NCBI GenBank assembly: GCA_964016885.1
Contig: OZ024742.1
Coordinates: forward strand, 311,488,001-311,552,000
Direction: 5' to 3'
DNA from: Eledone cirrhosa
Lineage: Eukaryota
DNA: 64,000 nucleotides
Below are positions 551 to 48,310 of the stretch, piece after piece. Each line of letters begins with the position of its first letter. The first letter of the stretch is position 1. The notes under the pieces were generated by a model that made no database searches, was not told where the DNA came from, and saw only the letters and a list, made by a program, of their open reading frames with translations. The position numbers and the translations under genes are program-made.

Positions 551-1395
551 ACTTATGCAGGGTGACCACAGTGTAATTCAAAGGACCAGCCTTGTCACAT
601 ATTGTGTTGCGTTGGATTGCCCCGAAAACTATGTTAAAGGTGCATGTGTCTGTGGAATGCTCAGCTAATTACAAATTAATTTCACGAGCAGGTAGTTCCA
701 TTGATTGGATCAACGTCGGAAACAACATGGACCTGTAACTCCTCATTGAGTCGTATGAGTGCTGTAGTGACATACGGCGTGTCTTGGGAATTTAAATCCT
801 GGCGGAATCCATTTCATCTCCCACCAGGTTTGAACACGGCCGATTTCTTCCAGAGAAGAGAGACAGTGTGGAAGTGAGAAAGAGATAGTAGAAGAAGAAT
901 CGAGCCCACTGCTGAACTGGTACATAGTTTTATCGACTTCGAAAGGATGAAAATTAAAGTGGACTTGGGTGATATTTGAACTTAGAGTACGGAAAATGCC
1001 GGGACGAATTCGCCGCCTTTCAAAATTATACATACCACCAAAGTGAAAGTGTATTTCGTAATTTTTGGATCCAGAACTAAATTAATATACTATTATTAAT
1101 TCGGCTCCATTTTCAACGGGCACTACAACGCTATTAGCTGTCAGTCGAAGCAGCCGATGAAAGCAAAACATCGTTTATTTACGTATTACTACCACGCGTA
1201 AGTGGAGTTACTTAAATGAAATTTTTTTTTTTCACTCGTTTTTTTTATTTTTTTTTATTAAAGCATATATATGTAAGTGGAGTTACTTAAATGAAAATAT
1301 AGGTGGCCCTTAAAAGGGCCAAATTCGAATATACCGCTGCGTTTTTACAGTTTTACTAGTTACACATACACACACATATATATATATATATATAC

Positions 1396-1476
1396 ACACG
1401 GTGTCCCCTCCAAAATATATACACACTTTGATTACTTTGCTGTTGAAGTGTGTATACATTTTTTGGGACACTGTGT
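1396..1476. mobile_element. Tiny Tc1/mariner-like palindromic MITE remnant
   Basis: CACGGTGTCCC...ATATACACACTTT and AAGTGTGTATACAT...GGGACACTGTG form an inverted pair embedded in (TA)n. Confidence 0.5.
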
Positions 1477-1477
1477 T

Positions 1478-1543
<66 letters not shown>

Positions 1544-1883
1544 GGGAAGGGAGAAATTTTCGGATGCTATACCTGACATAATAAAAAACCAAAATACACC
1601 CCTAACATTTGTCGGAATATCAATCACGAGAGTAGATAAATAAATATATAAATACATAAATAAGAAATGATAGAAAAGGAAAAAAAAAATCCCTACATTA
1701 TGTAATATTCCCAGTCACCCCTAAATTTCAAAACCGGGAGGGAAAAGTCCGAGGGTTAAAATCCCAAATGATGGTACCTCAAATACTAGTGTATCCCTTT
1801 GCATTACAGTTTAAAGCAATACATGTGATCGCTTTGATGACTCTTATTCGTTTCTAAGGGTCTCATTTTTTTCTCTTCTTTCT

Positions 1884-1945
<62 letters not shown>

Positions 1946-2032
1946 AAAATCTTTCCCTCTGTCTATCTTTTTCCCTCTCTGTCTATCTTTTGCCATAAAA
2001 ACGATAATGATAATCAATTCAATTAAGAAATA

Positions 2033-2084
<52 letters not shown>

Positions 2085-3426
2085 GACAGGGGGGAAGAAA
2101 AAAAGAAAAAAATGGCTTCACTTGTGCTTTCAACAAATTTATTTTCTTCACAAAATCCCAAAAGAATTTTTTTCCGGATTAGAAAAAATGTTTTCTTAAA
2201 AAAAAATATTTTATAAATTAAGTTGTTGGTTGTTGGTTCTTGGTTAACGTAGGAGGTATTGTTTCGTTTTTAGAAAGACCTTTCACGCTGAGGTGCGCTT
2301 GTCAAACTGATGTGTATGTGGTGTGTTGTTCTATATATAGGGATTTAACATGTCTGTGGTGTGGTGGGTTTTTTTTTCTCCCCCTTTAATAAGTGTAGGG
2401 GTGTAGGTGTGTTGAAAAAGTGTTAATAGCAGTAATGAGTTGAGACGGTGAGTAGGGTTGGGTGGGGAGAAATGTAGCAAGTGCGGCCTGCCCCGGTCAT
2501 TCTCGAAAAATTCCTTTATTCAGGGGAAAAAGCTTTTAGTATTCCTTTGTGTTGAGAATGGTCATAGGCAAACCTATGTGTACACGTGTGTGTGTGTGTA
2601 TGTGTGCGTGTATGTGTATATATGTATATTTAGTTATGTATCTTTATGTGTGTATATGTATGTATATGTATGTATATATATATATATACCCATGTGGAGG
2701 TATGAGTACATATTCGTGTGTGTACGTATGTGTATATGTGTTTTTATATGTGTCTTTATATGTTTTTATGTATGTATGTGGATGTATATGTACATGGGTG
2801 TGTGATTGATGGTGTGTGCCTATATATTCCTACATATGCCCGTGTGTGTATGCACGTATATACGCACATATGTGTGTGTTGAACAAAGGACTAATTTTGG
2901 GATGGACGTAGAAAAATTCTTCAGAAAAAAATAATTGTTTACAAACTTGGCAGGTGCGGTTTGCCTATGACCATTCTCAACACAAAGGAATACTAAAAGC
3001 TTTTTCCCCTGAATAAAGGAATTTTTCGAGAATGACCGGGGCAGGCCGCACTTGCTACATTTCTCCCCACCCAACCCTACTCACCGTCTCAGCTCATTAC
3101 TGCTATTAACACTTTTTCAACACACCTACACCCCTACACTTATTAAAGGGGGAGAAAAAAAAAACCACCACACCACAGACATGTTAAATCCCTATATATA
3201 GAACAACACACCACAGCGTGAAAGGTCGTTCTAAAAACGAAACAATACGTCCTACGTTAACCAAGAACCAACAACCAACAACTTAATTTATAAAATAATT
3301 TTTTTTAAGAAAAATTTTTTTATAATCCGGAAAACAATTCTTTTGGGATTTTGTGAAAAAATAAATTTGTTGAAAGCACAAGTGAAGCCATTTTTTTATT
3401 TTTTTATTTTTTTCTTCCCCCCTGTC
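2085..3426. mobile_element. Foldback element with ~480-bp inverted arms and TTAA flanks (Kolobok-like)
   Basis: Arms 2085-2574 and 2958-3426 are near-identical reverse complements (both strands give the ORF start MGGEKCSKCGLPRS); TTAA at 2081-2084 and 3427-3430; termini begin GA; TG/TA-rich spacer. Confidence 0.75.
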
Positions 3427-3794
3427 TTAATATACCTAACTGTACCAAGGATTACACACATTTTCCAATATATATATATATATATTATTAGTATTATTAT
3501 TAAAATTAAATACCATTTATTCTGCGGCAGAGAGCTTCATCTTCTCCATCATTCGCTCCTCCAGAATCGTAGTACTCGTCGTTATTGTATGTGTGTGTTT
3601 CTGCGTATATATATATATATGTGGTGTGTATGTGTTTGTGTGTATATGTATATATGTTTGCGATCGCCACTCTCGCCCTTCGTGAGGAGAATGCTGTGTA
3701 CGTATGTATATATATATGTGTGTATGTGTGTGCTTGGAATATTTACCAATGGTTGGTATATCGATGAACCTCTGATAGGCTTATACAGAATTAA

Positions 3795-3945
3795 TTGTTT
3801 CTACTTTAGGCACAAGGCCAGCAATCATCCAGTGCATTACTGGTACTTTATTTTATCGACCCAGTAAGGATGAAAGGCAAAGTCAACCTCGGCGGGATTT
3901 GAACTCAGATCGTAAAGGGACGTAACTATGCTGGAAAGCATGGAG
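3795..3945 (-). mobile_element. tRNA-derived SINE with Meta-domain-like core (other copies near 915-1030, 25136-25305, 30750-30932, 50980-51120, 58450-58655, 61590-61785, 63565-63750)
   Basis: On the minus strand: B-box GAGTTCAAATCCC then GTTGACTTTGCCTTTCATCCTTAC..GGTCGATAAAATAAAGTACCAG; recurs many times in the window. Confidence 0.75.
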
Positions 3946-4439
3946 GCTTATACAGAATTAATGGATCTCGTATCGGTTCCTTTCGTTCGATCACCAAGAA
4001 CTACCCACACATTTGAATTTATAATGTAAATGGTTAAATGTTTCACAAACACTTGTACTCCCTTACTTTAACATACCCCTCCCCCATATACACATACTAT
4101 GTGGGCACTCAGTTTGCTAGAAATAACAGCCAATTCTTTCCACCCACCTTAAAAAAAATATTAAGAAAGAACACGATGTTCGATAATGTACTTACTAGAT
4201 ACACCTAAAACGACGGGATGGTCGTGGCTGGAATACCGTTGATCATAATGGAATTCTATGGTTTAGTCAAGGTTGACCTAGGGCTAAACAACAACAATAA
4301 CGTAATCCCCAAGCAGAATCTATAAACAGACTAAAAAACAGCTTGTAAAAAAAGAATGATATGTATCTGATAAAGAGGTAGGAAGCAGCTAGTATTGATA
4401 TACAACAGGGTATTATATATATATATTCCAGTTCCTCAG

Positions 4440-5880
4440 TGAAGACGCTAACGTAAACGATGACGCAGACGCTAATGTAAACGATGACGTAAACGCTGAT
4501 ACAGACGCAAATGTAAACGCTGACACTGATGTAGATGTAAATACAGACGCTGACATAGAAGCTAACACAGACACTAATGTAAGCGCTGACGTAGAAGCCA
4601 ATGTAGATGCTGACGTAGAAGCTAACGTAAACGATGACGTAGATGTTAACGTAGACGCTGACGTAGATGCTGACGTAAAAGCTAACGTAAACGCTGACGT
4701 AGAAGCTAACAAAACGCTGACGTAGTTGTTAACGTAGAAGCAGGCGTAGAAGTTAGCGTTTACCCTTACCGCCGAAGCTGATCTCCAAAACGCAATTGCT
4801 GATGCGGATTGCTGAAGCCAAAGCCAAGCTAACGCTGACGCAAATGTTGAGGCAGTTTTGCCGGCGCTGACGTGTATGCTGACGCTAACGCAAATGCTGA
4901 TGCAGACGCTAGGGCTAAGGCTAACGCTAACGCTGACGCAAATGCTGAAGTTAACGCTTACATGGGATATGCAGACGCTGCAATGATGCGGACGCCACAG
5001 GAAAGGTTAATGGAAACGCCAATGCTAACGAAACTCTGACGTAGACGTTACGGAAACACTGACGTAGAAGCTAACGTAAACGCTGACACAGACGCTAACA
5101 TAAACACTGACGTTAACGGAAACACTGACGCTGATGTAGATGTAAATACTGACGCTGACACAGACGAGGTGGGAAACGCTGACGTAGAAGCTAACGGAAA
5201 CACTGACATAGATGCTAACGGAAATGCTGACATAGAAGCTAACGTACACGCTGACACAGACGCTAGCGAAATGCTGACAAAGACGTTAAAGGAAACGCTG
5301 TCGCAAACGCTAATGCTAATGTGAATGCTGATGCAGATGCTGACACAAATGCTAACCCCTACACAAATGCAAACGCTGATGCTAACACTGACTCAAACAC
5401 TAATGCAAACGCTGACACTGAGGGAAATGCTGACACTGACACAAGTGCTGACGCGGACGCTAATGATAATGCTGACTCAGAAGCTGACGTAGACACAGGC
5501 ACTGAAACAAACACTAATGCTAACACTAATGTTGACTCAGACGCTAAGGGAAATGCTGACACAATCACTATCACCAATGCAGACGCTGACGCAAATGCTG
5601 ACATAGATGCTGACACTTACGCCAACACTAAGGCTAATCCAAACACTAACGCATATGCTAACACCAATCCACATAGACACTAACACAAAAGCTTACATAG
5701 ACGCTTATGCAAATGCTAACGCTGATGCAGACAGTAACGCAAACAGTAACTGTAAGAGTAACAGTTACAGTAACACTAACAGTGACAGTAATGCTAACAG
5801 TAACACAGTCACTAACAATAAACTTACCATTAACAGTAAAACTTACCCTAACACTAACCCTAAATCTAACATTAACCCAG
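4440..5880 (+). repeat. Degenerate hexamer-periodic array (GACGCT/AACGTA/AACACT/AACAGT grading to TAACCC)
   Basis: Clear 6-bp periodicity giving dipeptide-like pseudo-ORFs in several frames; ends in ACCCTAACACTAACCCTAAATCTAACATTAACCC. Confidence 0.8.
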
Positions 5881-5989
5881 AGAAAAAAGTCATTTGCAAT
5901 CACATTTAAGGTCACTCTTTAAGATATAGAAGATAGGCATTACATTTTAATGATTTTAATTTAAAGAGAATCGCGCTATACGATGCAAC

Positions 5990-8900
5990 ACAATAACACA
6001 CCACACCACACTAACCTACACTACACCAAACCAGATTATACCATACCTTGGTAAATTTATGATAGGTTTCCATGTTATAACTACACCAAACTAAACCATA
6101 CCAAACTACAACAAACCAAACCACACCATAACTACACCATACTACATCACACCATGCTATTGAACTCAGTGTGAAAAAGTTTCTTCCTGCTTTTTTTGTC
6201 TTTTTTGTGTGTGTGTGCTTACCACCCAATCTGACATTAAAAGTGTTCGCAATTAACTATTATTTGCACATATTATCAATGAAGACTTTGAAACCTGTTG
6301 AAAATGACTAGCTTTGTAGAAAAAAGAGGGCGGAAAGTGGGTGGAAATACCATTCACAAAGCTTGTCATTTTTTATTGCAGTGAAAGTCATATTTGTTGT
6401 TAATATGGTAATGGAGGCACATGGCTTAGTGGTTAGAGCATTGGCCTTGCAATCGAAAGGTTGTGAGTTCAATTCTCAGACCAGGTGGTGTGTTCTTTCC
6501 TTGAGCAAGACACTTTATTTCACATTGCTCCAGTTTACTCAACTGTAGAAATGAGATGATAGGGACTGAGGTCCCTATCATTCCACTGCAAAGTGGTCGT
6601 GTAGGTGCCACAGCAAAAACCACCCAGCACTCACTGTAAATGAGGTTGGTGTTAGGAAGGGCATCCAGCAGTAGAAATCAAGCCAGAATCAGTTCCCGTC
6701 CCACCCTTGCAAGCAGGGAAAAGTGGACATAAAATGATGATGATGGTAAAAGCATAGTCGGCTGTGAGCATGTTGGAGGTTGGAAAACCATACCACATTA
6801 AACTACATCAAACTACACCATACCAAACTACACCATTCTACATCACATTTTTTTCTGTGTGTGTGTGTGTGCTTACCACCCAATCTGATATCAAAGGTGC
6901 TCACAAATGACTATTTTTTTACACATATTCAATGTATATAACATGGAAACCTATCATTTGCAATAGGTTCCCATGTCATAACTACAACAATCCAAACCAC
7001 ACCATAACAAACTACACCATTCTACATCACACCATGCTTTTGATCTCAGTGTGAAAAATTTTCTTCCTGTTTCTTTTTTTTATTTGTGTGTGTTCTTACC
7101 ACCCAATCTGACATCAAAGGTACTGCAATTGACTATTTTTCGCACATATTATCAATAATTATGACATGGAAAACTGTCTAAAATGACTAGCTTTGTAGAA
7201 AAAAGAGGGAGGATGTGGGTGGAAATAACATTTACAAAGCTAGTCATTTTTTATTGCAGCGGAAGTCATATCTTTTTTTAATATAGTAAAAGCATAGTCC
7301 ACTGCGAGCATCTTGGAAGTTGTATTAGTTGATAGCACATGCAAAAGTGAAGGAAAAAAATGTTTCTTACATAAATCAAATTGGAAATTTAATTCCTTAC
7401 TTATAACAAAGCACACCACAGCACATTAATCTACCCCAAACCACACCATATCAAACAGCACCATACTATGGTAAATTTATTACAGAACACCTACTCCTAT
7501 CATTTACATCACACCATGGTATGGACATCAATATGACAAATTTGCTACCTGTTTTTTTTTTTTGTGTGGTTACCACGCAAACTAACATCAAAGGTGCTTG
7601 CAAATGACTATTTTCCCACATTAACAATGAATATGACATGGGAATCTATCGTTTAGAATTGGTTTCCATTTCATAATTTCACCAAACCAGACCACACCAT
7701 ACCAAGTTACACCATACTACATCACACCAAGCTATTGATTTTGGTGTGAAAAGTTTTCTTCCCGTTTCCTTTTTTTTTGTGTGTGTGTGCTTACCACCCA
7801 ATCTGACATTAAAGGTGCTCCCAATTGACTATTTTTTTTTCAATAATTATGACATGGAAACCTGTCGAAAATGATTATCTTTGTAGAAAATTCACCAAAC
7901 CACGCCATACTAGATCACACCAAGCTATTGATTTTGATGACAAATTTTCATCTTGCATTTTTTTTTTTTTTTTTGTGCTTACCACCCAATTTAACATAAA
8001 TGGTGCTCGCAAATTACTATTTTATGCACATATTATCAATGGTTATGACATGGAAACCTGATGAAAATGACTAGCTTTGTAGAAAAAAGAGGGAGGATGT
8101 GGGTGGAAATACCATTTACAAAGCTGGTCATTTTTTATTGCAGAGGAAGTCATATTTTTTGTTAATATGCTAAAAGCATAGTCCACTGCGAGCATCTTGG
8201 AAGTTGATAGCATATGCAAAAATGAAGGAAATTTTTTTTTTCTAACGTAAATCAAAGTGGAAATTTAAATCCTCACTTATAACAAAGCACACCACAGCAC
8301 ATTATTCTACCCCAATCCACACCATAACCATACTTCACTATATGGTAAATTTATTACAAAACACCTACTCCTACCATTTACATCACACCATGGTATGGAC
8401 ATCAATGTGACAAATTTGCTACCTGCTTTTTTTTTTTGTGGTTACCACCTCAAACTAACATCATAGGTGCTTGCAAGTGACTATTTTCCCCACACAATAT
8501 CAATGAATATGACATGGGAATCTATCGTTTACAATTGGTTTCCATTTCATAACTTCACCAAACCAAACCAAACCACACCATACCAAGTTACACCATACTA
8601 CATCACACCAAGCTATTGATCTTGGTGTGAAGTATTTTCTTCCCGTTTCCTTTTTTTGTGTGCTTACCACCCAATCTGACATTAAAGGTGCTCCCAATTT
8701 ACTTTTTTTTTCACATATCAATAATTATAACATGGAAACCTGTCGAAAATGACTATCTTTGTAGAAACTTCACCAAACCACACCATACTACATCACACCA
8801 AGCTATTGATTTTGGTGTGACAAATTTTCATTTGGCACTTTTTTTTTTTTTTTTTGTGCTTCCCACCCAATTTGACATAAATGGTGCTCGCAAATTACTA

Positions 8901-11900
8901 TTTTATGCACATATTATCAATGGTTATGACATGGAAACCTGATGAAAATGACTAGTTTTGTAGAAAAAAAAGGGAGGATGTCGGTGGAAATACCATTTAC
9001 AAAGCTAGCCATTTTTTATTGCAGCGGAAGTCATATTTTTTGTTAATATGCTAAGAGCATAGTCCACTGCGACCTTCTTAGAAGTTGATAGCACATGCAA
9101 AAATGAAGGAAAAATTTTTTTTCTAACATAAATAAAAGTGGAAATTTAAATCCTCACTTATAACAAAGCACACCACAGCACATTAATCTACCCCAATCCA
9201 CACAATATACTTCACCATAACCATACTTCACTATATGGTAAATTTATTACAGAACACCTTCTCCTACAATTTGCATCACACCATGGTATGGACATCAATG
9301 TGATAAATTTGCTACCTGCTTTTTTTTTTTTTTGAGGTTACCACCTCAAACTAACATCAAAGATGCTTGCAAATGACTATTTTCCCACACATTAACAATG
9401 GATATGACATGGGAATCTATCGTTTACAATTGGTTTCCATTTCATAACTTCACCAAACCGAACCAAACTACACCATACCAAGTTACACCATACTACATCG
9501 CACCAAGCTATTGATCTTGGTGTGAAAAATGTTCTTCCCATTTCCTTTTTTTTGTGTGTGTGCTTACCACCCAATTTGACATTAAAGGTGCTCCCAATTA
9601 ACTATTTTTTTTTTCCACTTATCAATAATTATGACATGGAAACCTGTCGAAAATGACTATCTTTGTAGAAAGTTCACCAAACCACACCATACTACATCAC
9701 ACCAAGCTATTGATTTTGGTGTGAGAAATTTTAATTTGGATTTTTTTTTTTTTTTTTTTGGTGCTTACCACCCAATTTGACATACATGGTTCTCACAAAT
9801 TACTATTTTATGCACATATTATCAATGGTTATGACATGGAAACCTGATGAAAATGACTAGCTTTGTAGAAAAAAGAGGGAGGATGTCGGTGGAAATACCA
9901 TTTACAAAACTAGCCATTTTTTATTGCAGCGGAAGTCATATTTTTTGTTAATATGTTGAAAGCATAGTCCACTGCGAGCATCTTGGAAGTTGATAGCGCA
10001 TGCAAAAATGAAGGAAAAACATTTTTTCTAACATAAATCAAAGTGGAAATTTAAATCCTCACTTACAACAAAGCACACCACAGCACATTAATCTACTCCA
10101 ATCCATACCATAACCATACTTCACTATATGGTAAATTTATTACAAAACACCTACTCCTACCATTTACATCACACCATGGTATGGACATCAATGTGACAAA
10201 TTTGTACCTGCTTCTTTTTTTTGTGTGGTTACCACCTCAAACTAACATCAAAGATGCTTGCAAATGACTATTTTCCCACACATTATCAATGAATATGACA
10301 TGGGAATCTATCGTTTACAATTGGTTTCCATTTCATAACTTCACCAAACCAAACCAAACCACACCATACTAAGTTACACCATACTACATCGTACCAAGCT
10401 ATTGATCTTGGTGTGAAACATTTTTTTCCCGTTTCCTTTTTTTTCTGTGTGCTTACCACCCAATCTGACATTAAAGGTGCTCCCAATTTACTTTTTTTTT
10501 TCACATATCAATAATTATGACATGGAAACCTGTCGAAAATAACTATCTTTGTAGGAACTTCACCAAACCACACCATACTACATCACACCAAGCTGTTGAT
10601 TTTGGTGTGACAAATTTTCATTTGGCATTTTCTTTTTTTTTTTGTGTGCTTACCACCCAATTTGACATAAATGGTGCTTGCAAATTACTATTTTATGCAC
10701 ATATTATCAATGGTTATGACATGGAAACCTGATGAAAATGACTAGCTTTGTAGAAAAAAGAGGGAGGATGTGGGTGGAAATACCATTTACAAAGCTAGTC
10801 ATTTTTTATTGCAGCGGAAGTCATATTTTTTGTTAATATGCTAAAAGCATAGTCCACTGCAAGCATCTTGGAAGTTGATAGCACATGCAAAAATGAAGGA
10901 AAAATTTTTTTTCTAACATAAATCAAAGTGGAAATTTAAATCCTCACTTATAACAAAGCACACCACAGCACATTAATCTACCCCAATCCACACCAGAACC
11001 ATACTTCACTATATGGTAAATTTATTACAAAACACCTACTCCTACCATTTACATCGCACCATGGTATGGACATCAATGTGACAAATTTGCTACCTGCTTC
11101 TTTTTTTTGTGGTTACCACCTCAAACTGACATCAAAGATGCTTGCAAATGACTATTTTCCCACACATTATCAATGAATATGACATGGGAATCTCTCGTTT
11201 ACAATTGGTTTCCATTTCATAACTTCACCAAACCAAACCAAACCACACCATACCAGGTTACACTATACTACATCACACCAAGCTATTGATCTTGGTGTGA
11301 AAAATTTTTTTCCCGTTTCCTTTTTTCTTTTTCTGTGTGCTTACCACCCAATCTGACATTAAAGGTGCTCCCAATTTACTTTTTTTTCACATATCAATAA
11401 TTATGACATGGAAACCTGTCGAAAATGACTATCTTTGTAGAAACTTCACCAAACCACACCATACTACATCACACCGAGCTGTTGATTTTGGTGTGACAAA
11501 TTTTCATTTGGCATTTTCTTTTTTTTTTTGTGTGCTTACCACCCAATTTGATATAAATGGTGCTTGCAAATTACTATTTTATGCACATATTATCAATGGT
11601 TATGACATGGAAACCTGATGAAAATGACTAGCTTTGTAGAAAAAAGAGGGAGGATGTGGGTGGAAATACCATTTACAAAGCTAGTCATTTTTTATTGCAG
11701 CGGAAGTCATATTTTTTGTTAATATGCTAAAAGCATAGTCCACTGCGAGCATCTTGGAAGTTGATAGCACATGCAAAAATGAAGGAAAAATTTTTTTTCT
11801 AACATAAATCAAAGTGGAAATTTAAATCCTCACTTATAACAAAGCACACCACAGCACATTAATCAACCCCAATCCACACCATATACTTCACCATATGGTA

Positions 11901-12190
11901 AATTAATTACAGAACACCTACTCGTACAATTTACATCACACCAATGCTCGCAGTTGACTATTTTTTTCACATATTATGAATGAATATAACTTTGAAACCT
12001 AGCGTCAATGATTAACTTTGTAGAAAAATGAAGGCAGAAAGTGGGTGGGAAAACCATTCACAAAGCTAGTCATTTTTAATTGCAGTGGAAATCATATTTG
12101 TTGTTAATATGCTAAAAAAATAGTCAATTGCAAGCATTTTGGAGGGCAGATTAGTTGATCGGACATAAAAAAACAAAGGAAAACAAATAT
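5990..12190. repeat. Tandem array of ~885-bp units (about 7 copies) built from diverged internal subrepeats
   Basis: Marker AAAATGACTAGCTTTGTAGAAAAAAGAGGG recurs at about 6300, 7180, 8064, 8945, 9850, 10735 and 11620; CTTACCACCCAAT..GACAT..AA.GGTGCT recurs about three times per unit. Confidence 0.9.
6411..6745 (+). mobile_element. tRNA-derived SINE with RTE-type 3' tail, inserted in the first satellite unit
   Basis: A-box TGGCTTAGTGG, B-box GAGTTCAATTC, CTTGAGCAAGACAC core, GGTTGGTGTTAGGAAGGGCATCC tail ending (ATG)n; ATGGTAA duplicated on both sides. Confidence 0.85.
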
Positions 12191-12500
12191 TGTCTATATG
12201 TTCCTTTGGAAAGTCGGGTCTTCTGTATTACTGTGTGATGCCAGAGGTCATGGTCGTGTGTCATTGCCCTTGAGAGGTGCAATTGGGAAAGGTCGGCTCA
12301 GAAATATTTACTTCTGCGTTCACAGATTGATTTTTTTTAGTTTCAGAAGATCCCATTAAGGGTGAAAACAGCCGATTCTTTGCTTAAACTTTAATCTGTT
12401 ATTTTAATAAATATTTGCTCTACGGTTCTTATATATTTGATATATATTTATCCTTATTGAGCCCTCTTTGGATTTTAGTCTTCATATGTATTATTAATAC

Positions 12501-12589
<89 letters not shown>

Positions 12590-12629
12590 TAGTTTATATA
12601 TATGTGTGTATATATATATACATACGTAT

Positions 12630-12968
12630 TGAGAGCATTGGCCTTGCAATCGAAAGGTTGTGAGTTCAATTCTCACACCGGGTGATGTGTTGTTTCCTTG
12701 AGCAAAACACTTTATTTCACATTGCTCCAGTTTACTCAGCTGTAGAAATGAGATGATAGGACAGTGGTCGTGGAGGTGCCACGGCAAAAAAGCACCCAGC
12801 CCACACTGTAAAGTGGATGTGGAGGTGCCACGGGAAAAAAGCACCCAGCACTCACTATAAATGAGGTTGGTGTTAGGAAGGGCATCCAGCTGTAGAAATC
12901 AAGCCAGAATCAGTTCCCGTCCCACCCTTGCAAGCAGGGAAAAAGTGGACGTAAAATGAAATGATGAT
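12630..12968 (+). mobile_element. 5'-truncated copy of the same tRNA-SINE family
   Basis: Collinear with 6435-6745. Confidence 0.8.
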
Positions 12969-12969
12969 G

Positions 12970-13300
12970 AATGCTCCCAGCTTTGGTCACCCCATAGTAT
13001 CAAACTAACCATGGAGCTTGAAGCAATCCAATGAAGCTACACCAAGGAGGTTGCCACGATGAAGGAGATAAACTACTGGGAGAGTCTAAAAGAACTGAAA
13101 CTCTACTCCTCGGAATGAAGATGGGAGAGATATGCAATGATATACATATGGAAAATCCTGGGGGACTAAGACCAAACTTTCGCATTGAGAGCTGGACCAA
13201 TTCTCGAACAGGACGTCACTGTGTGGTACCAAAGGTCCCATCTTCCACATCTAGAATCAGGAACAGCTATTCCAATAGCCTGGGGTTCAAAGGCCCTCAA
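12970..13300 (+). mobile_element. CR1/L2-group LINE 3' ORF2 fragment
   Basis: YWESLKELKLYS...RTGRHCVVPKVP...NSLGFKGPQL; homologous to 14297-14728 and 53460-53700. Confidence 0.75.
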
Positions 13301-13377
13301 CTTGGTTTTCAAAATTTAAATTTGTGTTTCCTATTCATCAATGCTTCAAGCAAGCTATAAAATTCTGTTATATTTCA

Positions 13378-13760
13378 TCATCATCATTTTATGTCAGTTC
13401 TTCTACGCTAGCATGGGTTGTCCTGTTGTGGGCAGTGTCCGGTCGGCTGACCTTGTCTTGCTCATACGGGAACTGATTCTGTCTTGATTTCTACAGCTGG
13501 ATGCCCTTCCTAACACCAACCTCATTTACAGTGAGTGCTGGGTGTTTTTTTTTTTTTTTGGCCCTGGCACCTCCACGACCACTTTGCAGTGGAATGATAG
13601 GGACCCCAGTCCTATCATCTCATTTCTACAGCTGAGTAAACTGGAGCAATGTGAAATAAAGTGTCTTGCTCAAGGAAACAACACATCACCCGGTCCGAGA
13701 ATTAAACTCACAACCTTTCAATTGCAAGCCCAATGCTCTAACCACTGAGCCATGTGCCTT
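13378..13760 (-). mobile_element. tRNA-derived SINE, reverse orientation
   Basis: Reverse complement of the 6411/51907 family, with (CAT)n tail at 13375. Confidence 0.8.
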
Positions 13761-13764
13761 CTAT

Positions 13765-14230
13765 TGTTGGCAATGTTAGGTCAGGTGACCATGTCTTGCT
13801 CATAAAGAACTGATTTTGGCTTTGTTTCTACAGCTGGATGCCCTTCCTAATGCCAAGCTCATTTACAGTGAGTACTGGGTGTTTTTTGTTGATTCCTCCA
13901 CGACTACTTTACAGTGTGGACTGGGTGTTTTTTACCGTGTCACCATCACGACCACTTTACAGTGTTTCGGCCTGTTCTCATGAAAGATATATTGGCGGGT
14001 GGGATGGAGTGGTGCATACTGTATGTATGTTTCAGCCTTGGCCTGGGCCCGTGGGAAGTTGGGGTTTCTGTATTACCTCATAACGCCAGAGATCTTGGTC
14101 CTGTGTCATTGCCTTTCAGAGGTGCAATTGGGCAAGGTCGGTTTTTATCACTTCATCTCAAGTCTTTCTGGAACTTTATGTAGCTGTCATCCTTCATACG
14201 AATCACATGTCCATACCAACATAATCTCCT
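13765..14230 (-). mobile_element. RTE-clade LINE 3' fragment
   Basis: Reverse-complement match to the RTE end at 14960-15500 (WYGHVIRMKDDS...WDEVIK-like). Confidence 0.65.
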
Positions 14231-14249
14231 CTCCTGCACACAACATTTG

Positions 14250-14880
14250 ATTCCGGCTGAGACCATGATTGGGCACTGCCCTTGTTGCTACACATTCTAT
14301 CTCCAGCCTGTGTTGGCTGGCCATTGATGTAAGAGGGAGTTTGTTGCTGCTGCCCTTAGGTTACCTTCATACCGTGATGTGGGCTCATCCGGAATCCTGG
14401 ATAATAGGGTGTCGAGAAGTTTCTTGAAAATATCCACGGCCACACCATGTAGATCTTTCAAATCCCTCGGCAGTTTGTTGAAGAGTTGAGGGCGTTTGAA
14501 CCCCAGTCTATTGCAATATCTGCTTCTTGTTCTAGATGTGGAAGACGGGACCTTTGTCACCACACAGTGACGTCCTGTTCGGGGGTTGGTCCCGCTCTCA
14601 ATACCAAAGTTTGGCGCTAGTCCCTCCAGGATTTTCCATATGTATATCACTGCGTATCTCTCCCGTCTTCGTTCCAAGGAGTAGAGTTTCAGTTCTTTTA
14701 GCCTCTCCCAGTAGCTCATCTCATTCATCGTGCAATCCTCTTGGTGTAGCTTCGTTGGATTGTCTCAAGTTCCGTGGTTAGTTTGATACTATGGGGTGAC
14801 CACAACTGGGAGCAATAGTCCAGGCGGCTTAGGACAAATGGCCTTCATAGTATCAACATGGTCTCCTGGTCTCTTATATA
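14250..14880 (-). mobile_element. CR1/L2-group LINE 3' end
   Basis: ORF 14297-14728: MSYWERLKELKLYSLERRRERYAVIYIWKILEG...LFNKLPRDLK...FKKLLDTLLSRIPDEP, a typical CR1-group ORF2 C-terminus; LDYCSQLWSP upstream. Confidence 0.85.
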
Positions 14881-14959
14881 GAAAACCTCAAATAAAAAGT
14901 TTCGATTTAACAGAGCAGAAAGAATTCGCGTCAGAATATTCCAACCAATCCAGCCTATA

Positions 14960-15580
14960 TCAGCTGAATAAATATGTATATGGAACAACAAAGCATAAAG
15001 GAATTGAGAGAGAGACTGAGCATAAGAGGAATCAAATGCTGCGTGCAGGAGAGGCGGTTACGCTGGTATGGACATGTGATGCGTATGAAGGATGACAGCT
15101 GCGTAAAAAGGTGCAGAGCACTAGAAGTTGATGGAAACCGCGGAGTGGGGAGACCCAAGATGACTTGGGATGAGGTGATAAAAGCCGACCTTACCCAACT
15201 ACACCTCTCAAAGACAATGACACACGACCGTGACTTCTGGCGTCACGCAGTAATACAGGGTACCCGACCTCCCATGGGTACATGCTGAAGCATATAAACA
15301 ATATGCCCCCACTCCCCCCACCGCAAGGTGGTCGTGGAGGTGCCACGGCAAAAAAGCACCCAGCCCACACTGTAAAGTGGACGTGTAGGCGCCACGAAAA
15401 AGCACCCAGCACTCACTGTAAATGAGGTTGGTGTTGGGAAGGGCATCCAGCTGTGGAAATCAAGCCAGATCAGTTCCTGTATGAGCAAGGCATGGTCAGC
15501 CGACCAGACACTGCCCACAACAGGACAACCCGTCTAACCCATGCTAGCGTGGAAGAACGGACGTAAAACGGTGATGATGA
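14960..15580 (+). mobile_element. RTE-clade LINE 3' end with UTR and (GAT)n tail
   Basis: RRLRWYGHVMRMKDD...RGVGRPKMTWDEVIKADL...DRDFWR, followed by the same tail that the SINEs carry. Confidence 0.85.
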
Positions 15581-16264
15581 TATATATATATACACACCCA
15601 CATGCACATATATATATATATATACACACATACGCACGCACACACACATATATATATACACACACACACTCAAACACACACATACATATACGCATGCATG
15701 CATACATGATGGCTGCCCCCTCGTTATCGAGTATGGCCAATGCATGATATCCCATTATTAATAATTATTAATTAATTCTATCGTGCAATGCCTGTGCATG
15801 AAGATATTTTTTTAAATGAGGAAAGACTGTGCACTGAGCCAATCCCACTCTCTGAGCGACAGTAGCTATAACCCGAAAAGAAGAAAATATCAACATCATC
15901 GGAATGCCCTGACAAAGGCTAGGGGTCCTTTACTCTCAGTGGTTTAACCGCTCGATCGGGTGTCCAGCCTGATTATTTCTACGTCCCCGTGCATGTACAT
16001 ACACATGCACCCATGTATATACACATATACATACATATGTACATGTGTATATACATATTTACACACTTTTGGATGGCCGTTGACTCTTATGAGATCTTCT
16101 GCCCTTTGTCAGGTTTTGTTTTTTATCCTGCAGGGTGTCCAAAATCACCCTCCTCACCAAGTAAACTTGGTGGGGTTGCCAGTTTAGTCGCCGACGTCCC
16201 GACCATGCGACAGGTTGTACTGGGTTACATGTTATCAATAGCACTCAAGAGTGACCCGACATAC

Positions 16265-18750
16265 ATACATACATACTACATGATGGCTGAAAACTCGTGT
16301 TCAAGTATTGCCATCGCCCGATAAAATGTTCAAAAATGTGAAGCACAAATGTGACTCTTTAAACCAGCCAAATACTTGCACCCTCTGGCACACACATGGC
16401 AACTTTAGGCTTCCCCGAAACCTTCCATTGCTTTGTTCTGGTTGTATGTTCACATGTATCTTTTAAGACCTCCCATGCTTGTACATTTCTTACACCTTTT
16501 CAGATCATAATCTACATGAGGTCTACTGATATGACTTTGTTCATGTCTAATCAAACCAGCTTTGCTCAGGCTGACTCGACCACAGTACTGGCAAACCAGA
16601 TGATGTTCAACAGCAGGCAGTTCAGAACAGTCTCAATCCTCACCTTCCTTTTCAGAGTTAGGTGTTATCTCCAACGAGTTTCAAAGTGTTCACCACCTGA
16701 CTTGATCAAACGTCTCCACTTCACACGCTCGTCAGCCATTTTCTCCCATTCGTCAGATGAAATTCCAGCACAAGCCAAGGTGCCCCTGATACAGTCCCGG
16801 TATCGCCTTTTTGGTTTATGTGGTGGTCGCCTTCCTTCACAGTTCTCCATAGATAAGTTGCTTTGGAATACGATCATCAGACATCCGGACCACGTGACTG
16901 CACCACCTCAACCGATACCGAAAGATTATGCTCTCTATAGTCACGCACCTGCTCCGTTCTAGAACTTCCAAATCACCGACGAACATTTTCCACCACACCC
17001 CAAGTAACTTATGAAGAGATTGTTGGTGAAATCTCTCCAGATCCTTGAGGTGCTTTCTGTATGTGACCCACGTTTCACAAACATAAAGTAAAGAGGAGAC
17101 GACACAAGTCAGATACACTTTCACCTTGGTTTCGATAGTGATACCTCGTCTGGACCATAAACGTTGATGCAACCGTCCAAAAGCATCACTGGCTTTCTTG
17201 ATTCTTAAGGATATTTCATTATCATGTGTGCATGAAGTGTTCAACGTACTACCAAGGTAAACAAACTTGTCAGCAACTTTTAGCCTCTTTCCGTACACGT
17301 ACACACTTGGTGCAGTGTACTCGTTTCCAGGTACTGGCTGATACATCACAACAGTCTTTTCCAAGCTTATTGTGACGCCCAAAGTGCTGGAAGCTGCAGA
17401 AAAAGAGTTCATAATATGCTGCATGTCACTTTGTGAGTGTGCAAATAGATCGCAGTCGTCTGCATACAAAAACTCTCGGATTATAGATGTTAATACTTTT
17501 GTGCTTGTACCAAAGCGCCTGGTGTTGAACAACCTTCCTGAAGTGCGATACCTGATGTAAACCCCATGAGAACAATATTTGAATGCCATGAGAAACACTA
17601 TCGTAAAATATAAGGAAAACAGAGTTGGAGCCGGAATGTCCCCCTGCTTCACTCCATTTTCAACTGATATTGGTTCAGAGATGCTACCACCAATACTGAC
17701 CAAAGCCTTCATGTCATCATGGAAAATATGCAGAATCTTCTACCCTACCTTGGATTTTTTTCCCACAACGCAGTTAGATTGACAGTGTCAAAGGCCTTTG
17801 TCAAGTCAACAAAGACCTGGTAAAGGTCCATACATTGTTCGATACACTTTTCTTGCAGCTGCAGAGCAGAAACGATCATATCCACTGTTCCTCTTTCGTT
17901 TCTGAACCCACACTGCGACTCAGGCAACACATTCAGAGCAACTCTCGGGATCAATCTATCCATCAATATTCGACACGACTTTACCAACTACTGAAAGAAG
18001 GGATATGACATGATAATTGCCACATTTGTCCTTGCCGTCCTTTCCTTTATGGAGAATCACCATGAGGCATCCTTCTTGTGGGACATTCTCATCTTCCCAC
18101 ACCATTTTCATGAGGTCAGTCAGGCGCTGCGTGAAGTTTTCACCACCACACTTCAAAACCGCTCCACTCAGACCATCCATACCAGGAGACTTACCACAGT
18201 TCAGCTTATGCACAACAGAAGTCCCCTCTGCAAGAGAAGATACATTAGCCATCTCATATGCTTCACTGGTTCAATAGGAATGGAACAAATGAAATCATCA
18301 TCAACCTGGTTTAAGAGCTCATCAAAGTGATCTCTCTATCTGTCGAGTGTCTTTTGGGTCACGCAGTAATTGCTTGCCATCTTTCGATCTCAAAGGGGCC
18401 ACTGGAGAGCTGAAAGAGCCATACACCTCTGTGAGTAGAAAGTGCGGCAGTTTCACATTGTTGCCGTCAGATGCCACTTGAACTTCATCTGCTTTGTTGC
18501 TCCACCAGGTATTTTGCATAGCCCTGAGTTTCACCTGCACTTCCTTCTTTACCTGTCTGTAACGCTCATAATTGTCACCAACAGAGCTACCACCTTTAAG
18601 AACTGCATCAAGTGCCTTTTGTTTTCTGTCTAGCAGAGCCTTGACCTCCTGGTCATTCTCATCAAACCAGTCCTTGTTTTCTTGTAACAAAGCCAAGGAC
18701 CTCTGCTGAAGTCTCATAGACCGAGCTCCTGAAGTCCTTCCAGTTGTTCT
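16265..18750 (-). mobile_element. Decayed RTE (BovB-like) LINE ORF2 with RT domain and C-terminal C2H2-like zinc fingers
   Basis: Consecutive frameshifted ORFs: KSPGMDG, LPESQCGFR, FVDLTKAFDTVN, GVKQGDIPAPTLF, FLYADD, FVYLGS, RLRWCSHVVRMSDDRIPKQLIYGEL; downstream CQYCGRV and CHVCARGCKYLAGLKSH. Confidence 0.9.
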
Positions 18751-19519
18751 CATACACGCATACATACTTACATATATACATGTATACATAGATGCATACA
18801 TCCATACATACATGTATACACACATACATCCATACATCCATCCATACATACATACATGTATACACACATACATACATACATCCATCCATACGTGTATACA
18901 TACATACAATGGTTAAAGTGTTTGACTGACGACCATAAGTTCATGGATTCATATTTGGGACCGGGTAGTTATTGAATCAACCTGATATCAATGTTTATTA
19001 TACAGCACACTTCCTCTTTGGTATAATATGACACATAGTAATATCTAACATAGTACCCATCTAATCTGTTATAATATGATTTACCGTTCCTCTGTGAAGG
19101 CACATAACTTAAGGGTTACGGTACTGGACTAACCATTATAAAGTCATGGGCTCGTTTCTTCGATCCTGCAGCATGTTGCGTCCTTCAGTAAAATACTTTA
19201 GTTCGTGTAGTAGCATCTTCTACCAGGACTTGCGGCAGACAGATAATATCAGTAATGGAAAAAACCTTGTTTCATTAGTATGACCTGGAAATCAGTTCCA
19301 CTCTATTTATCTTCTTTATTAAAGGCAATCAAATTATTTTTTATTTTATTCTTTTTCTTATTTTTCCATGTTTGTTAAATAAATTCCAAAAAATCGAACT
19401 AAATTGAAATTTTGTAATAAAATTTCCATAAAAGTTAATGTTTACAATACAATAAAATGTAATAAAATGTATTGAAGTCGACGAAATGTGGACCTTCATT
19501 TTTGAAAGATGGATAATGC

Positions 19520-19772
19520 TATAAGCAGACCTTACAATATTGTACCACAATTTTCCTTTGTGCAAAAGTGGGCAGCCGAATTTAGGAAAGGATAGGGGAT
19601 TCTTGAAGATGACCCAATGTTTGGACGTCCTACAACTGCCACTACCGAGGAAAACATTAATCTCAGTACTGCAACACCGATGGAAGAAGTGTGTGGAACG
19701 CAAGGGAGACTATGTTGTAAAATATACCTCATTTGGTCACATTCCATGAGAGTATCTTTGTCAACCCTCGTA
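19520..19772 (+). mobile_element. Internally deleted mariner transposon remnant
   Basis: KWAAEF...EDDPMFGRPTTATTEENI (N-terminal mariner motif) joined to LQHRWKKCVERKGDYV (C-terminal motif), ending CAACCCTCGTA. Confidence 0.75.
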
Positions 19773-19807
19773 TCTATGCGCAATATACGTAAAGATACAG
19801 AATTGCG

Positions 19808-20217
19808 GGCACTACAACGCTATTAGCTGTCATATTTGTTGGTGTAAATAAATTTGATTATAAAACTTAAATTTATGAATGACTTGCTTTCTACATTGAT
19901 AACCATGACTTGTTTTCTAATTTGGCCCTTTTAAGGGCCACCTATATTTTCATTTAAGTAACTCCACTTACATCGATATGCTTTATAACCATGACTTGTT
20001 TTCTATTTGTTTTTTCTATTTGTTTTCTAATTTGGCCCTTTTAATTCTCCCCCCCCTCTCTCTCTTTTCCCTATCTCTCCTCTTCCCTCTCTCTCTCAAA
20101 AAAACACGTGAAAACTCCACATACGCGTGGTAGTAATACGGAAATAAACGATGTTGACGAGTGACGTCACCTTCGCCTGTTTTCCACTGGACTGACAGCT
20201 AATAGCGTTGTAGTGCC
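19808..20217. mobile_element. 410-bp MITE-sized unit sharing the right TIR of the 19-kb segment
   Basis: Third TIR copy GGCACTACAACGCTATTAGCTGTCA at 19808-19832; its left flank (GAATTGCG) does not match the right flank (TTTCAACG). Confidence 0.7.
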
Positions 20218-20610
20218 TTTCAACGTACCAATAACAAAAAATAGCCTATATAAACAAACAATCCCAAAAGTATACATATACACACTACTTCGATGTAGAG
20301 ATATACAGTTACAAACATTTTTCTTCTTTTATTCATTCTTCCCGATATTTTAGAATTTTATTATATATAAATTACGTGTCATAATAATAAATTTAACAAC
20401 TTAAATAAATGTTTAAAAAGATGAACATTAACTTCTTTTACATAAATTCATAGCACAAAATGATGACGTCAACCCCAAGCAAGATGACGTATTAAACATA
20501 TACTGATATTTATGTTTTCATTGTCAGTTGAACATTTATAAAATTTCTCTCTAAAATATTCCTTCCCTTCAGAGTACAATCTGGTCAAAAACTGTAACAA
20601 AGAATTTAAA

Positions 20611-20675
20611 ATGTCAGATCCTTATTCAAGTGCCAGAGGATCACTTAAACTGAAAAAGAATGCAAAAGTAAATAA
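20611..20675 (+). CDS. FAM32A: FAM32A coding exon 1
   Basis: ATG..MSDPYSSARGSLKLKKNAKVN, GxLKLK motif of FAM32A; phase-2 donor AA|GTAAGT. Confidence 0.85.
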
Positions 20676-20749
20676 GTAAGTACTTTGTTTATGAGTCTAA
20701 ATAAGTTCTCGAGCAGTGAGAAGAAAAAGGCCTTAAATATAGTTTTGTA

Positions 20750-26083: not shown

Positions 26084-26152
26084 GATTTCAACCGGCATTT
26101 GGATACTCTCACTGAGCATTTTGATATCCCTAAAGTCAGCTGGACTAAATGA
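26084..26152 (+). CDS. FAM32A: FAM32A coding exon 4 (last)
   Basis: CAG|DFNRHLDTLTEHFDIPKVSWTK-stop, almost identical to the vertebrate FAM32A C-terminus. Confidence 0.95.
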   Translation, partial: DFNRHLDTLTEHFDIPKVSWTK

Positions 26153-28459: not shown

Positions 28460-30750
28460 ACAGTAAGTAGCAAGTGTCCACAGGATACTTGCTCCTTCAA
28501 ATGCCCAGATGGTACTATAGAAATAGTCAACACTTTCCGTTACCTGGGTGATGAAATCAGCAGTAGACGAGGGTGTTCCGAAAGTACAGTAGCCAGAGTA
28601 AGAATGGGATGGAGAAAGTTCAAAAAGCTACTGCTGCTACTAGCTACAAAAGGTTTTTCCTTTAAAATGAAGGGCAGACTATGATGTATGTATATGAACA
28701 GCAATGTTACATGGTAGCGAAACCTGGACACTATGCAGAGGACTTGTGAAGACTGGAAAGAAGTGAAGCATGCATGCTCCGATAGATGTGTAATAGTAAT
28801 ATAAATGAACTAAGAGGGATCAGATGCAGTATGCTATAGAGGAAATTGTGTTGGCATGGTCATGTTATGCAAATGAAGGACAGCTGTATAAAAAGGTGCA
28901 GGGCGATTGAAATTAATAGAAGCTATGGATTAGGAAGACCTGGGATGAGGTGATAAAAGCTAACTTTGCGCAACTGAACCTCTCAAAGACAATGACAGGA
29001 TCGAGATCTTTGGTGTTGTGCAGTAAAACAGAAGACCCACCTCCCTATGCGCACACACAAATATACATTTTGTAGACACCTCTTAACCACTATACTACCA
29101 CCCTCCCATCTATTCCTGTCCATACCACCCTTATGCTGTGGACAAAACATAACCAGCCCACTGTAAAGTGGTCATGTAGGTTTCGCGACAAAAACTACCC
29201 AGCCCACACTGAAGTGGTCATTTAGGTGTCATGACAAAAAACACCCAGCCCACACTGTAAAGTGGTCATGTAGGTGTCACGACAAAAAGCATCCAGCCCA
29301 CACTGTAAAGTGGTCATGTAGGTGTCACGACAAAAAACACCCAGCCCACACTGTAAAGTGGTCATGTAGGTGTCACGACAAAAAGCATCCAGCCCACACT
29401 GTAAAGTGGTCATGTAGGTGTCACGACAAAAAGCATCCAGCCCACACTGTAAAGTGGTCATGTAGGTGTCACGACAAAAAACACCCAGCCCACACTGTAA
29501 AGTGGTCATGTAGGTGTCACAACAAAAAACACCCAGCCCACACTGTAAAGTGGTCATGTAGGTGTCACGACAAAAAACACCCAGCCCACACTGTAAAGTG
29601 GTCATGTAGGTGTCACGACAAAAAGCATCCAGCCCACACTGTAAAGTGGTCATGTAGGTGTCACGACAAAAAACACCCAGCCCACACTGTAAAGTGGTCA
29701 TGTAGGTTTCGCGACAAAAACTACCCAGCCCACACTGAAGTGGTCATTTAGGTATCATGACAAAAAACACCCAGCCCACACTGTAAAGTGGTCATGTAGG
29801 TGTCACGACAAAAAGCATCCAGCCCACACTGTAAAGTGGTCATGTAGGTGTCACGACAAAAAGCATCCAGCCCACACTGTAAAGTGGTCATGTAGGTGTC
29901 ACGACAAAAAACACCCAGCCCACTGTAAAGTGGTCATGTAGGTGTCACGACAAAAAGCATCCAGCCCACACTGTAAAGTGGTCATGTAGGTGTCACGACA
30001 AAAAGCATCCAGCCCACACTGTAAAGTGGTCATGTAGGTGTCACGACAAAAAGCATCCAGCCCACACTGTAAAGTGGTCATGTAGGTGTCACGACAAAAA
30101 ACACCCAGCCCACACTGTAAAGTGGTCATGTAGGTGTCACGACAAAAAACACCCAGCCCACACTGTAAAGTGGTCATGTAGGTGTCACGACAAAAAACAC
30201 CCAGCCCACACTGTAAAGTGGTCATGTAGGTGTCACGACAAAAAACACCCAGCCCACACTGTAAAGTGGTCATGTAGGTGTCACGACAAAAAACACCCAG
30301 CCCACACTGTAAAGTGGTCATGTAGGTGTCACGACAAAAAGCATCCAGCCCACACTGTAAAGTGGTCATGTAGGTGTCACGACAAAAAACACCCAGCCCA
30401 CACTGTAAAGTGGTCATGTAGGTGTCACGACAAAAAGCATCCAGCCCACACTGTAAAGTGGTCATGTAGGTGTCACGACAAAAAACACCCAGCCCACACT
30501 GTAAAGTGGTCATGTAGGTGTCACGACAAAAAGCATCCAGCCCACACTGTAAAGTGGTCATGTAGGTGTCACGACAAAAAGCACTCGGCACACACTAAAT
30601 GTGGTTGGTGTTAGGAAGGGCATCCAACTATAGAAAACTAGCCAGGAACAGTTCTGTATGTGCAAGACACAATCACCTGACCCAATTTGCCTGAAATGGG
30701 ACAACCCGTCTAACTTATGCTAACATGCAAAATGGGCGTTAAACGATAAT
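28460..30750 (+). mobile_element. RTE LINE 3' portion with an expanded 3'-UTR tandem array
   Basis: IVNTFRYLGDEISSRRGCSESTVARVRMGWRKFKKL...WHGHVMQMK...WDEVIK, then the 48-bp array, then the GGTTGGTGTTAGGAAGGGCATCC tail. Confidence 0.8.
29152..30590 (+). repeat. 48-bp minisatellite, about 30 copies
   Basis: Unit CCAGCCCACACTGTAAAGTGGTCATGTAGGTGTCACGACAAAAAGCAT (two main variants); explains the 16-aa periodic ORFs. Confidence 0.95.
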
Positions 30751-47200: not shown

Positions 47201-48222
47201 TGGGCTGTGTGTATTGTATTGTGGCACCAACACTATCACTTTACTGTGTGGACTGTGTGTATTGTATTGTGGCACCAACACTATCACTTTACTGTGTGGG
47301 CTGTGTGTATTGTGACACCAGCACTATCACTTTACTGTGTGGGCTGTGTGTATTGTGGCACCAACACTATCACTTTACTGTGTGGGCTGTGTGTATTGTA
47401 TTGTGGCACCAACACTATCACTTTACAGTGTGGACTGTGTGTATTGTGGCACCAGCACTATCACTTTACTGTGTGGGCTGTGTGTATTGTATTGTGGCAC
47501 CAACACTATCACTTTACTGTGTGGGCTGTGTGTATTGTATTGTGGCACCAACACTATCACTTTACTGTGTGGACTGTGTGTATTGTATTGTGGAACCAAC
47601 ACTATCACTTTACAGTGTGGACTGTGTGTATTGTATTGTGACACCAACACTATCACTTTACTGTGTGGGCTGTGTGTATTGTATTGTGGCACCAACACTA
47701 TCACTTTACAGTGTGGACTGTGTGTATTGTATTGTGACACCAACACTATCACTTTACTGTGTGGGATGTGTGTATTGTATTGTGGCACCAACACTATCAC
47801 TTTACTGTGTGGGCTGTGTGTATTGTATTGTGGCACCAGCACTATCACTTTACTGTGTGGGCTGTGTGTATTGTATTGTGGCACCAACACTATCACTTTA
47901 CTGTGTGGGCTGTGTGTATTGTATTGTGGCACCAACACTATCACTTTACTGTGTGGGATGTGTGTATTGTATTGTGGCACCAACACTATCACTTTACTGT
48001 GTGGGCTGTGTGTATTGTATTGTGGCACCAGCACTATCACTTTACTGTGTGGGCTGTGTGTATTGTATTGTGGCACCAACACTATCACTTTACTGTGTGG
48101 GCTGTGTGTATTGTATTGTGGCACCAACACTATCACTTTACTGTGTGGGCTGTGTGTATTGTATTGTGGCACCAACACTATCACTTTACTGTGTGGGCTG
48201 TGTGTATTGTATTGTGGCACCA
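44300..48222 (-). repeat. 48/43-bp minisatellite, roughly 80 copies, derived from the RTE 3'-UTR repeat
   Basis: Unit GTGGCACCAACACTATCACTTTACTGTGTGGGCTGTGTGTATTGTATT; its reverse complement aligns with the 29152-30590 unit (CAGCCCACAC.GTAAAGTG). Confidence 0.95.
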
Positions 48223-48310
48223 AATAAAATAATTTAAAAAAAATAACAAGTCTCTAACACTTACAATTTTCTATTTTTTACAGCAGAACGTATTCCTGAA
48301 AAAAAAAAAA

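Follow-up and report, generated by a model that had tools for sequence, protein, structure and literature searches.

The stretch analysed here, referred to as the window, comprises 64,000 nucleotides of Eledone cirrhosa DNA (assembly GCA_964016885.1, contig OZ024742.1, positions 311,488,001 to 311,552,000 of the forward strand). It contains a 19,099-bp segment bounded by perfect terminal inverted repeats (TIRs). This segment very probably belongs to a multi-copy family of giant Merlin transposons, as a member with internal deletions and no transposase; the founder of the family would have arisen when the outer ends of small elements were paired across damaged inner ends. The family is dispersed in the genome in at least 70 copies. 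The novelty lies in the size and architecture of these Merlin elements; the superfamily itself is known.

The left TIR of the window copy (1119-1146) begins with GGCAC and is identical to the reverse complement of 20190-20217 over exactly 28 bp, as is typical of Merlin TIRs. The abutting positions 1111-1118 and 20218-20225 are identical 8-mers and form the target-site duplication (TSD); no other length from 4 to 13 bp gives identity, and a position-wise match of 8/8, given the flank composition of the family, is expected by chance at about 5e-4. Two subterminal blocks are also inverted between the ends, 1119-1209 versus 20217-20113 at 78% and 1259-1329 versus 19985-19915 at 96%. A sequence-only reading of the window had described the perfect TIRs, the TSD, the 19,099-bp length and both subterminal blocks, and direct comparison confirms each of them. 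It overlooked a third exact copy of the 25-bp TIR core, which lies bare inside the right end at 19808-19832 on the plus strand. The core occurs three times in the window and gave no match in 100 shuffles. The possibility that the TSD 8-mer belongs to the element itself or is a strictly required target was rejected because this 8-mer adjoins only the window copy among the listed ends.

In the 3.0-Gb genome the TIR core has 385 exact matches, 303 of them outer-type ends, and the reversed control has none. The outer-type ends listed (100 of 121, 41 of 41 and 100 of 141) are complete for the three largest contigs, C1 to C3, on which facing pairs 15-100 kb apart were read by eye. Twenty-four of the 34 such pairs share their own exact 8-mer, for which the chance is about 5e-4 per facing pair; two of these are segmental duplicates and two lie in AT repeats. 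Four further pairs come near (three match at 7/8 and one fits a 9-bp TSD), and the other six do not match. The pairs span 19.1-84.1 kb (median about 30 kb, mostly 22-48 kb), and the window copy is the smallest. Among 21 long pairs that were picked from the listings since they were apparently paired and then checked by script, 19 match at 8/8 and two at 7/8, and the 8-mers are distinct among pairs. One copy, E18, was omitted from the TSD counts, its left end lying outside the sequence used. A 9-bp TSD was found on contig C14. The target sites are AT-rich with a loose palindromic bias. Paralogous empty sites, in which the flanks are joined with a single TSD copy, were found for copies E9 (eight shown) and E1 (one); E5 and E6, whose tandem or AT-repeat flanks gave uninformative adjacent matches, were excluded from this count. 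The right flank of the window copy is single copy in the genome. Two other arrangements were observed. The 84-kb TSD-bounded span C3:42007068-42091191 encloses further family ends and may consist of nested or fused copies, and same-strand ends at C2:160784366 and 160948391, 164 kb apart, have flanks that are mutually reverse complementary, which may reflect an inversion through a copy.

Sister copies that share TIR and cargo with the window copy encode a transposase that matches PF12762 (DDE_Tnp_IS1595) with E values of 2e-19 to 7e-19 and has, in addition, a sub-threshold zinc-ribbon match. Its D, D and E residues are in place in alignments with homologs, and among named homologs Octopus proteins are nearest, at 73-85% identity. 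The open reading frame (ORF) lies about 0.4 kb inside the right end in the transposase-bearing copies, subtype A. Full ORFs of 300-302 amino acids (aa) were present at 3 of the 30 best loci examined, and their carriers include one 48-kb and one 7.5-kb TSD-bounded copy. Sister copies of equally large size supply the autonomous partner that the sequence-only reading proposed to look for, and the assignment to Merlin made in that reading is supported. The family TIR is also carried by a compact Merlin version of 2.18 kb and by short elements of 0.24-1.1 kb that have their own TSDs. The same genome contains other, distant families of Merlin transposases, at 34-49% identity, with open frames of about 325-340 aa. 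The window copy itself had been described as lacking a transposase, and none of its 51 scanned frames matches a transposase family; the only Pfam family found in them is RVT_1, in two frames. The copy is of the non-autonomous subtype L2-B.

The interiors of copies on different chromosomes are collinear, and 88% of the window copy is common to at least three other copies. Derivation of the whole segment from one insertion event, as first proposed, is supported by these dispersed, TSD-bounded copies with the same interior. Mean pairwise divergence in three blocks is 2.8%, 1.9% and 2.9% (12, 12 and 15 copies), the trees of all three are star-like with internal branches near zero, and private substitutions of the window copy amount to 0.7-0.9%. 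In 11/11 aligned copies of the non-autonomous subtype B, the sequence over the frame breaks of a long interspersed nuclear element (LINE) is the same, and a 9-bp LINE deletion is found in six of the 11, the window copy among them. These common lesions indicate that the LINE decayed before the spread and that copies arose from copies; the cargo thus decayed first and subsequently spread as a unit. TSDs are intact in 24 of 28 cases, against 79-87% expected for TSDs as old as the interior, and both TIRs are expected to be perfect in 43-60% of copies at a per-copy divergence of 1-1.5%. Perfect TIRs and TSD therefore do not single out the window copy as unusually young, and its age is ordinary for the family. 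The suggestion of a recent mobilisation of large cargo is thus upheld in that the segment moved whole and did not grow in place, but not as regards a particularly recent date.

The cargo is most likely passenger DNA. Mavericks/Polintons and Teratorn are recognised by polymerase, capsid or virus-like genes and by TSDs of 6 bp or TTAA. The present family differs from them in its 8-bp TSD and in the content of 93 frames of the window copy and E6, in which Pfam searches found no polymerase, capsid or other virus-like genes. It is quite unlikely that the cargo is a spliced accessory gene, encoding an acidic low-complexity protein that aids the element. In some copies, such as E6, a promoter-like stretch lies behind the L1-type end, together with an ATG beside a splice-donor-like motif, and several acceptor-like sites precede D/E/N-rich frames in the left and middle parts of the shared cargo of E6. 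The frames are broken, however, the ATG differs between copies, and copies freely delete these parts. Outside the LINE and transposase frames, the 93 frames gave one sub-threshold Pfam match (VPS9, 18 bits), and a 205-aa frame in the array has no longer homolog, although this is a weak test. A captured host gene in the shared core was rejected on the same two results. In E8 a 26-kb tandem array of about 100-bp units has been inserted near the left end (approximately 670-26800) and stops in a hairpin followed by CTAG, an end that we take to be Helitron-like; a copy on contig C4 has the same array at its left end.

The structure of the ends indicates how the family may have been assembled. A subterminal motif lies behind 114 of 116 outer ends and behind none of 21 inner TIRs. 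Twenty-two complete A or B copies were typed as L1-A (5), L1-B (2) or L2-B (15, including the window copy); the combination L2-A is absent among them, and E13 is of one other type. End type follows interior type in all 22. The inner termini are defective in all end modules. At the L1 end, a small palindromic module has its inner TIR cut short, and the B module opens with a bare TIR fused to the 3' region of the compact element. In all six A copies the junction with the core falls at the same position within a (CA)n tract; in five of them it is formed by a hairpin that carries a truncated TIR, ahead of the transposase (partly deleted in E7). The ends thus derive from separate smaller elements whose inner termini are still visible, at 19808 in the window copy and as truncated inner TIRs elsewhere, which is a feature of composite transposons. 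Of the 77 exact matches to the inner TIR in the genome, 75 have the same upstream flank, eight of them within two four-fold duplicated blocks, and the other two share a different flank. Four further inner sites, in which the TIR is mutated, retain the common flank.

These features suggest the following history. A functional end would consist of a TIR together with the subterminal motif, the transposase needing both. In the founder locus, small Merlin modules, each damaged at its inner end, would have been separated by about 22-25 kb, and transposase pairing the complete outer ends across the damaged inner ones would have taken the intervening repeat-rich host DNA. This composite step is likely to have occurred once, in the family founder. 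End swapping may then have generated the three subtypes, L1-A, L1-B and L2-B, which would have spread in one burst, after which insertions, deletions and array changes would have accumulated separately in each copy. The window insertion itself was likely a single cut-and-paste step by a sister-encoded Merlin DDE transposase that left the 8-bp TSD, and the two deletions and the foldback of this copy (described below) would have been acquired after insertion or in its direct parent.

Several observations weigh against this reading. In the paralogous flank test no joined empty site was found for the window locus or for most other copies. Many exact ends, about 20 of 46 on C1, have no facing partner, which exceeds the expectation from point mutation alone, and the 8-mers disagree in the six unmatched pairs on C1 to C3. 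No cargo donor locus outside the TIRs was found among the best candidates of the genome searches: a TIR lies directly upstream in 27 of 30 matches to the left cargo start, and all four matches of a further search are mutated B ends. The tree does not order the A and B subtypes. Finally, cargo can pass between ends without transposition, as the copy E21 demonstrates. E21 (C3:260642967-260684456) contains about 37 kb of sequence that was copied from a locus on another chromosome (contig C5, 12.46-13.08 Mb): a host-flank portion of 11.4 kb together with the greater part of the C5 copy, including that copy's own flank. The host-flank portion includes a 339-codon C2H2 zinc-finger frame that is Pfam-supported and 99% identical to that of C5. 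Mismatch to C5 is 0.1-1.6% in 22 of 26 1-kb windows and 1.8-4.1% in four satellite windows, against medians of about 2-13% to other copies. The left junction is in an (AT)n tract. Interpretation of E21 as a further recruitment of ends was rejected, since within 18-28 kb upstream of the C5 source there is no end, and neither outer part of E21 resembles C5 more closely than it resembles other copies. As separate observations, identical TSDs recur at spacings of 170-370 kb on C5 (12.47, 12.64, 12.81 and 13.03 Mb), on C211 (four sites) and on C3 (252.5 and 252.9 Mb), which indicates segmental duplication after insertion; the repeated block on C5 contains the zinc-finger ORF.

Copying of this kind could in principle account for the whole family, if small Merlins were inserted first and made the TSDs, and gap repair or ectopic conversion later placed copies of the giant interior between their ends. 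Replacement of interiors between resident ends is known from P elements, E21 holds its 37-kb tract between resident ends, there are short elements that combine this TIR with TSDs of their own, and several junctions lie in (AT)n or (CA)n tracts. We nevertheless regard this route as unlikely for the family: subtype-specific sequence starts a few bases from the 25-bp TIR core and follows the interior, most short elements have other end types, TSD decay fits the age of the interior, and the listings contain more long than short copies. End typing and TSD age argue that ectopic copying was probably not the main route of cargo spread. The remaining alternatives are local to the window. The sequence-only reading had offered a composite as one option, and a composite made at this locus, in which local DNA was moved a single time by two small elements lying close together, might be suggested by the right 410 bp, which resemble a self-contained miniature inverted-repeat transposable element (MITE) with TIRs at both ends. 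The same interior and inner-TIR flank recur, however, at 75 of the 77 exact inner-TIR sites on many contigs. The sharing of cargo across copies refutes a locus-specific composite, which is highly improbable; the window copy belongs to an amplified family and was not assembled where it now lies, and a free MITE was rejected as a common event on the same count. Slow enlargement of a small element in place, by nested insertion of LINEs, short interspersed nuclear elements (SINEs) and satellites, is scarcely credible. The foldback and the satellite copy number are indeed particular to the window copy, but the collinearity with other copies refutes such growth except for about 12% of the sequence, and the LINE lesions are common to all 11 B copies.

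The interior of the window copy was examined part by part (plus strand unless noted), and the foldback, hexamer array, satellite and LINE pieces named in the sequence-only reading were all found. Behind the left TSD and TIR, the L2-type subterminal region (1147-1330) carries the outer-end motif and is followed by cargo common to other L2-type copies (1331-2050, alignment to sister copies). The foldback, an unstranded long inverted repeat in a (TA)n tract (2078-3436), is present in the window copy only; E3 and E14 are uninterrupted here. Shared cargo at 3468-4295 matches E14 and E16 at 94-98% and ends at a deletion junction (4296-4442), where a 147-bp patch of family sequence replaces about 7.5-7.8 kb of E14/E16. 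The hexamer-derived array (4443-5900) belongs to the shared family core and has broken frames, the longest of 138 aa on the plus strand. Repeat analysis places a satellite of about seven units of approximately 886 bp at 5940-12300; counts of a unit marker in 23 other copies range from 0 to 11. A core common to A and B copies (12301-14254, by alignment) ends at 14254, where the second deletion removed about 1.4-1.9 kb. The B-type tail (14255-19807, minus strand) contains decayed LINE pieces with reverse transcriptase at 16840-17987 (RVT_1) and, at about 19440-19800, a scrap without Pfam match that is presumably mariner-like. The inner TIR (19808-19832, exact match) lacks the subterminal motif. 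The right-end module (19833-20189) corresponds to the 3' untranslated region and subterminal sequence of the compact Merlin and is followed by the right TIR (20190-20217, minus strand) and TSD.

The element had been placed about 390 bp before the ATG of FAM32A. The TIR is followed 394 bp later by an ATG at 20611; the name FAM32A rests on a C-terminal motif at about 26084-26149 that we take to be characteristic, and a Pfam search with this 22-aa piece gave no match. An acceptor-like site lies 38 bp upstream of the ATG (region 20560-20680), so the first exon of the gene may be upstream and the element may lie in the promoter or first intron. Elsewhere in the window, 48-bp minisatellite arrays at 29141-30596 (30 copies) and 44322-48223 (83 copies) are 92-94% alike.

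Merlin elements, relatives of IS1016/IS1595, are described as having 5'-GG TIRs of 24-462 bp, TSDs of 8-9 bp, a single DDE_Tnp_IS1595 transposase and internal tandem repeats (PMC8101967), and the present family is alike in all four respects. It differs from the Merlins listed there in its copies of 19-84 kb, a shared cargo of about 20-30 kb, inner TIR remnants and swapped ends. The largest coordinates in the Repbase-derived table S1 of that paper are about 10.3 kb (Merlin-1_DR) and 13.7 kb (Merlin-2_DR), lower bounds because the table states no lengths, and the giant family is about twice the size of these largest listed Merlins when they are so read. Recent Merlin insertions reported for Octopus vulgaris average about 2.6 kb (11 insertions, 28,998 bp; PMC13282606). 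As in Ac/Ds macrotransposons, outer ends of separate modules move the enclosed DNA with an 8-bp TSD, and a 28-kb Ac macrotransposon of maize excises (PMC9910405); the foldback-flanked transposable element of Drosophila (Ising; PMC6431247) and bacterial composite transposons follow the same outer-end principle. The systems so described are single alleles, whereas the present family is a dispersed composite of at least 70 copies whose inner ends are never or hardly reused. Teratorn, a fusion of piggyBac and a herpesvirus, shares the internal TIRs and large size (PMC6431247), and large CACTA elements, Pack-MULEs and Starships are likewise DNA elements of at least 16 kb or cargo-bearing. In contrast to Teratorn, Starships and the like as described, no viral or accessory genes were found here, the 300-aa transposase is the sole element gene, and the cargo consists of decayed repeats. 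The main text of a review of giant transposons, which sets the threshold at 20 kb, contains the word Merlin zero times (PMC6431247), and a literature search covering mainly open papers, with Repbase and Dfam outside it, found no account of giant Merlins.

Transposition efficiency is described as dropping with the distance between TIRs, and elements over 20 kb as exceptional and usually ascribed to useful or viral cargo (PMC6431247). Here some 25 kb of cargo without apparent use was amplified to at least 70 copies, in what appears to be one burst, with a 300-aa transposase, so the size limit becomes directly testable. The family hints at a compact large-cargo transposase, and its used and unused ends provide a natural comparison. 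In standard repeat annotation such elements would appear as separate LINE, SINE and satellite pieces. Giant copies disperse satellites and provide long homologous templates, through which a host zinc-finger ORF was copied to another chromosome. More speculatively, and with considerable doubt, giant Merlins may serve as gene-moving vehicles of the octopod genome, in which native mobility at 25-50 kb by a 300-aa transposase, pickup of host genes by ectopic repair, as seen with the C2H2 zinc-finger ORF in E21, and re-transposition would lead to gene-family expansion and rearrangement.

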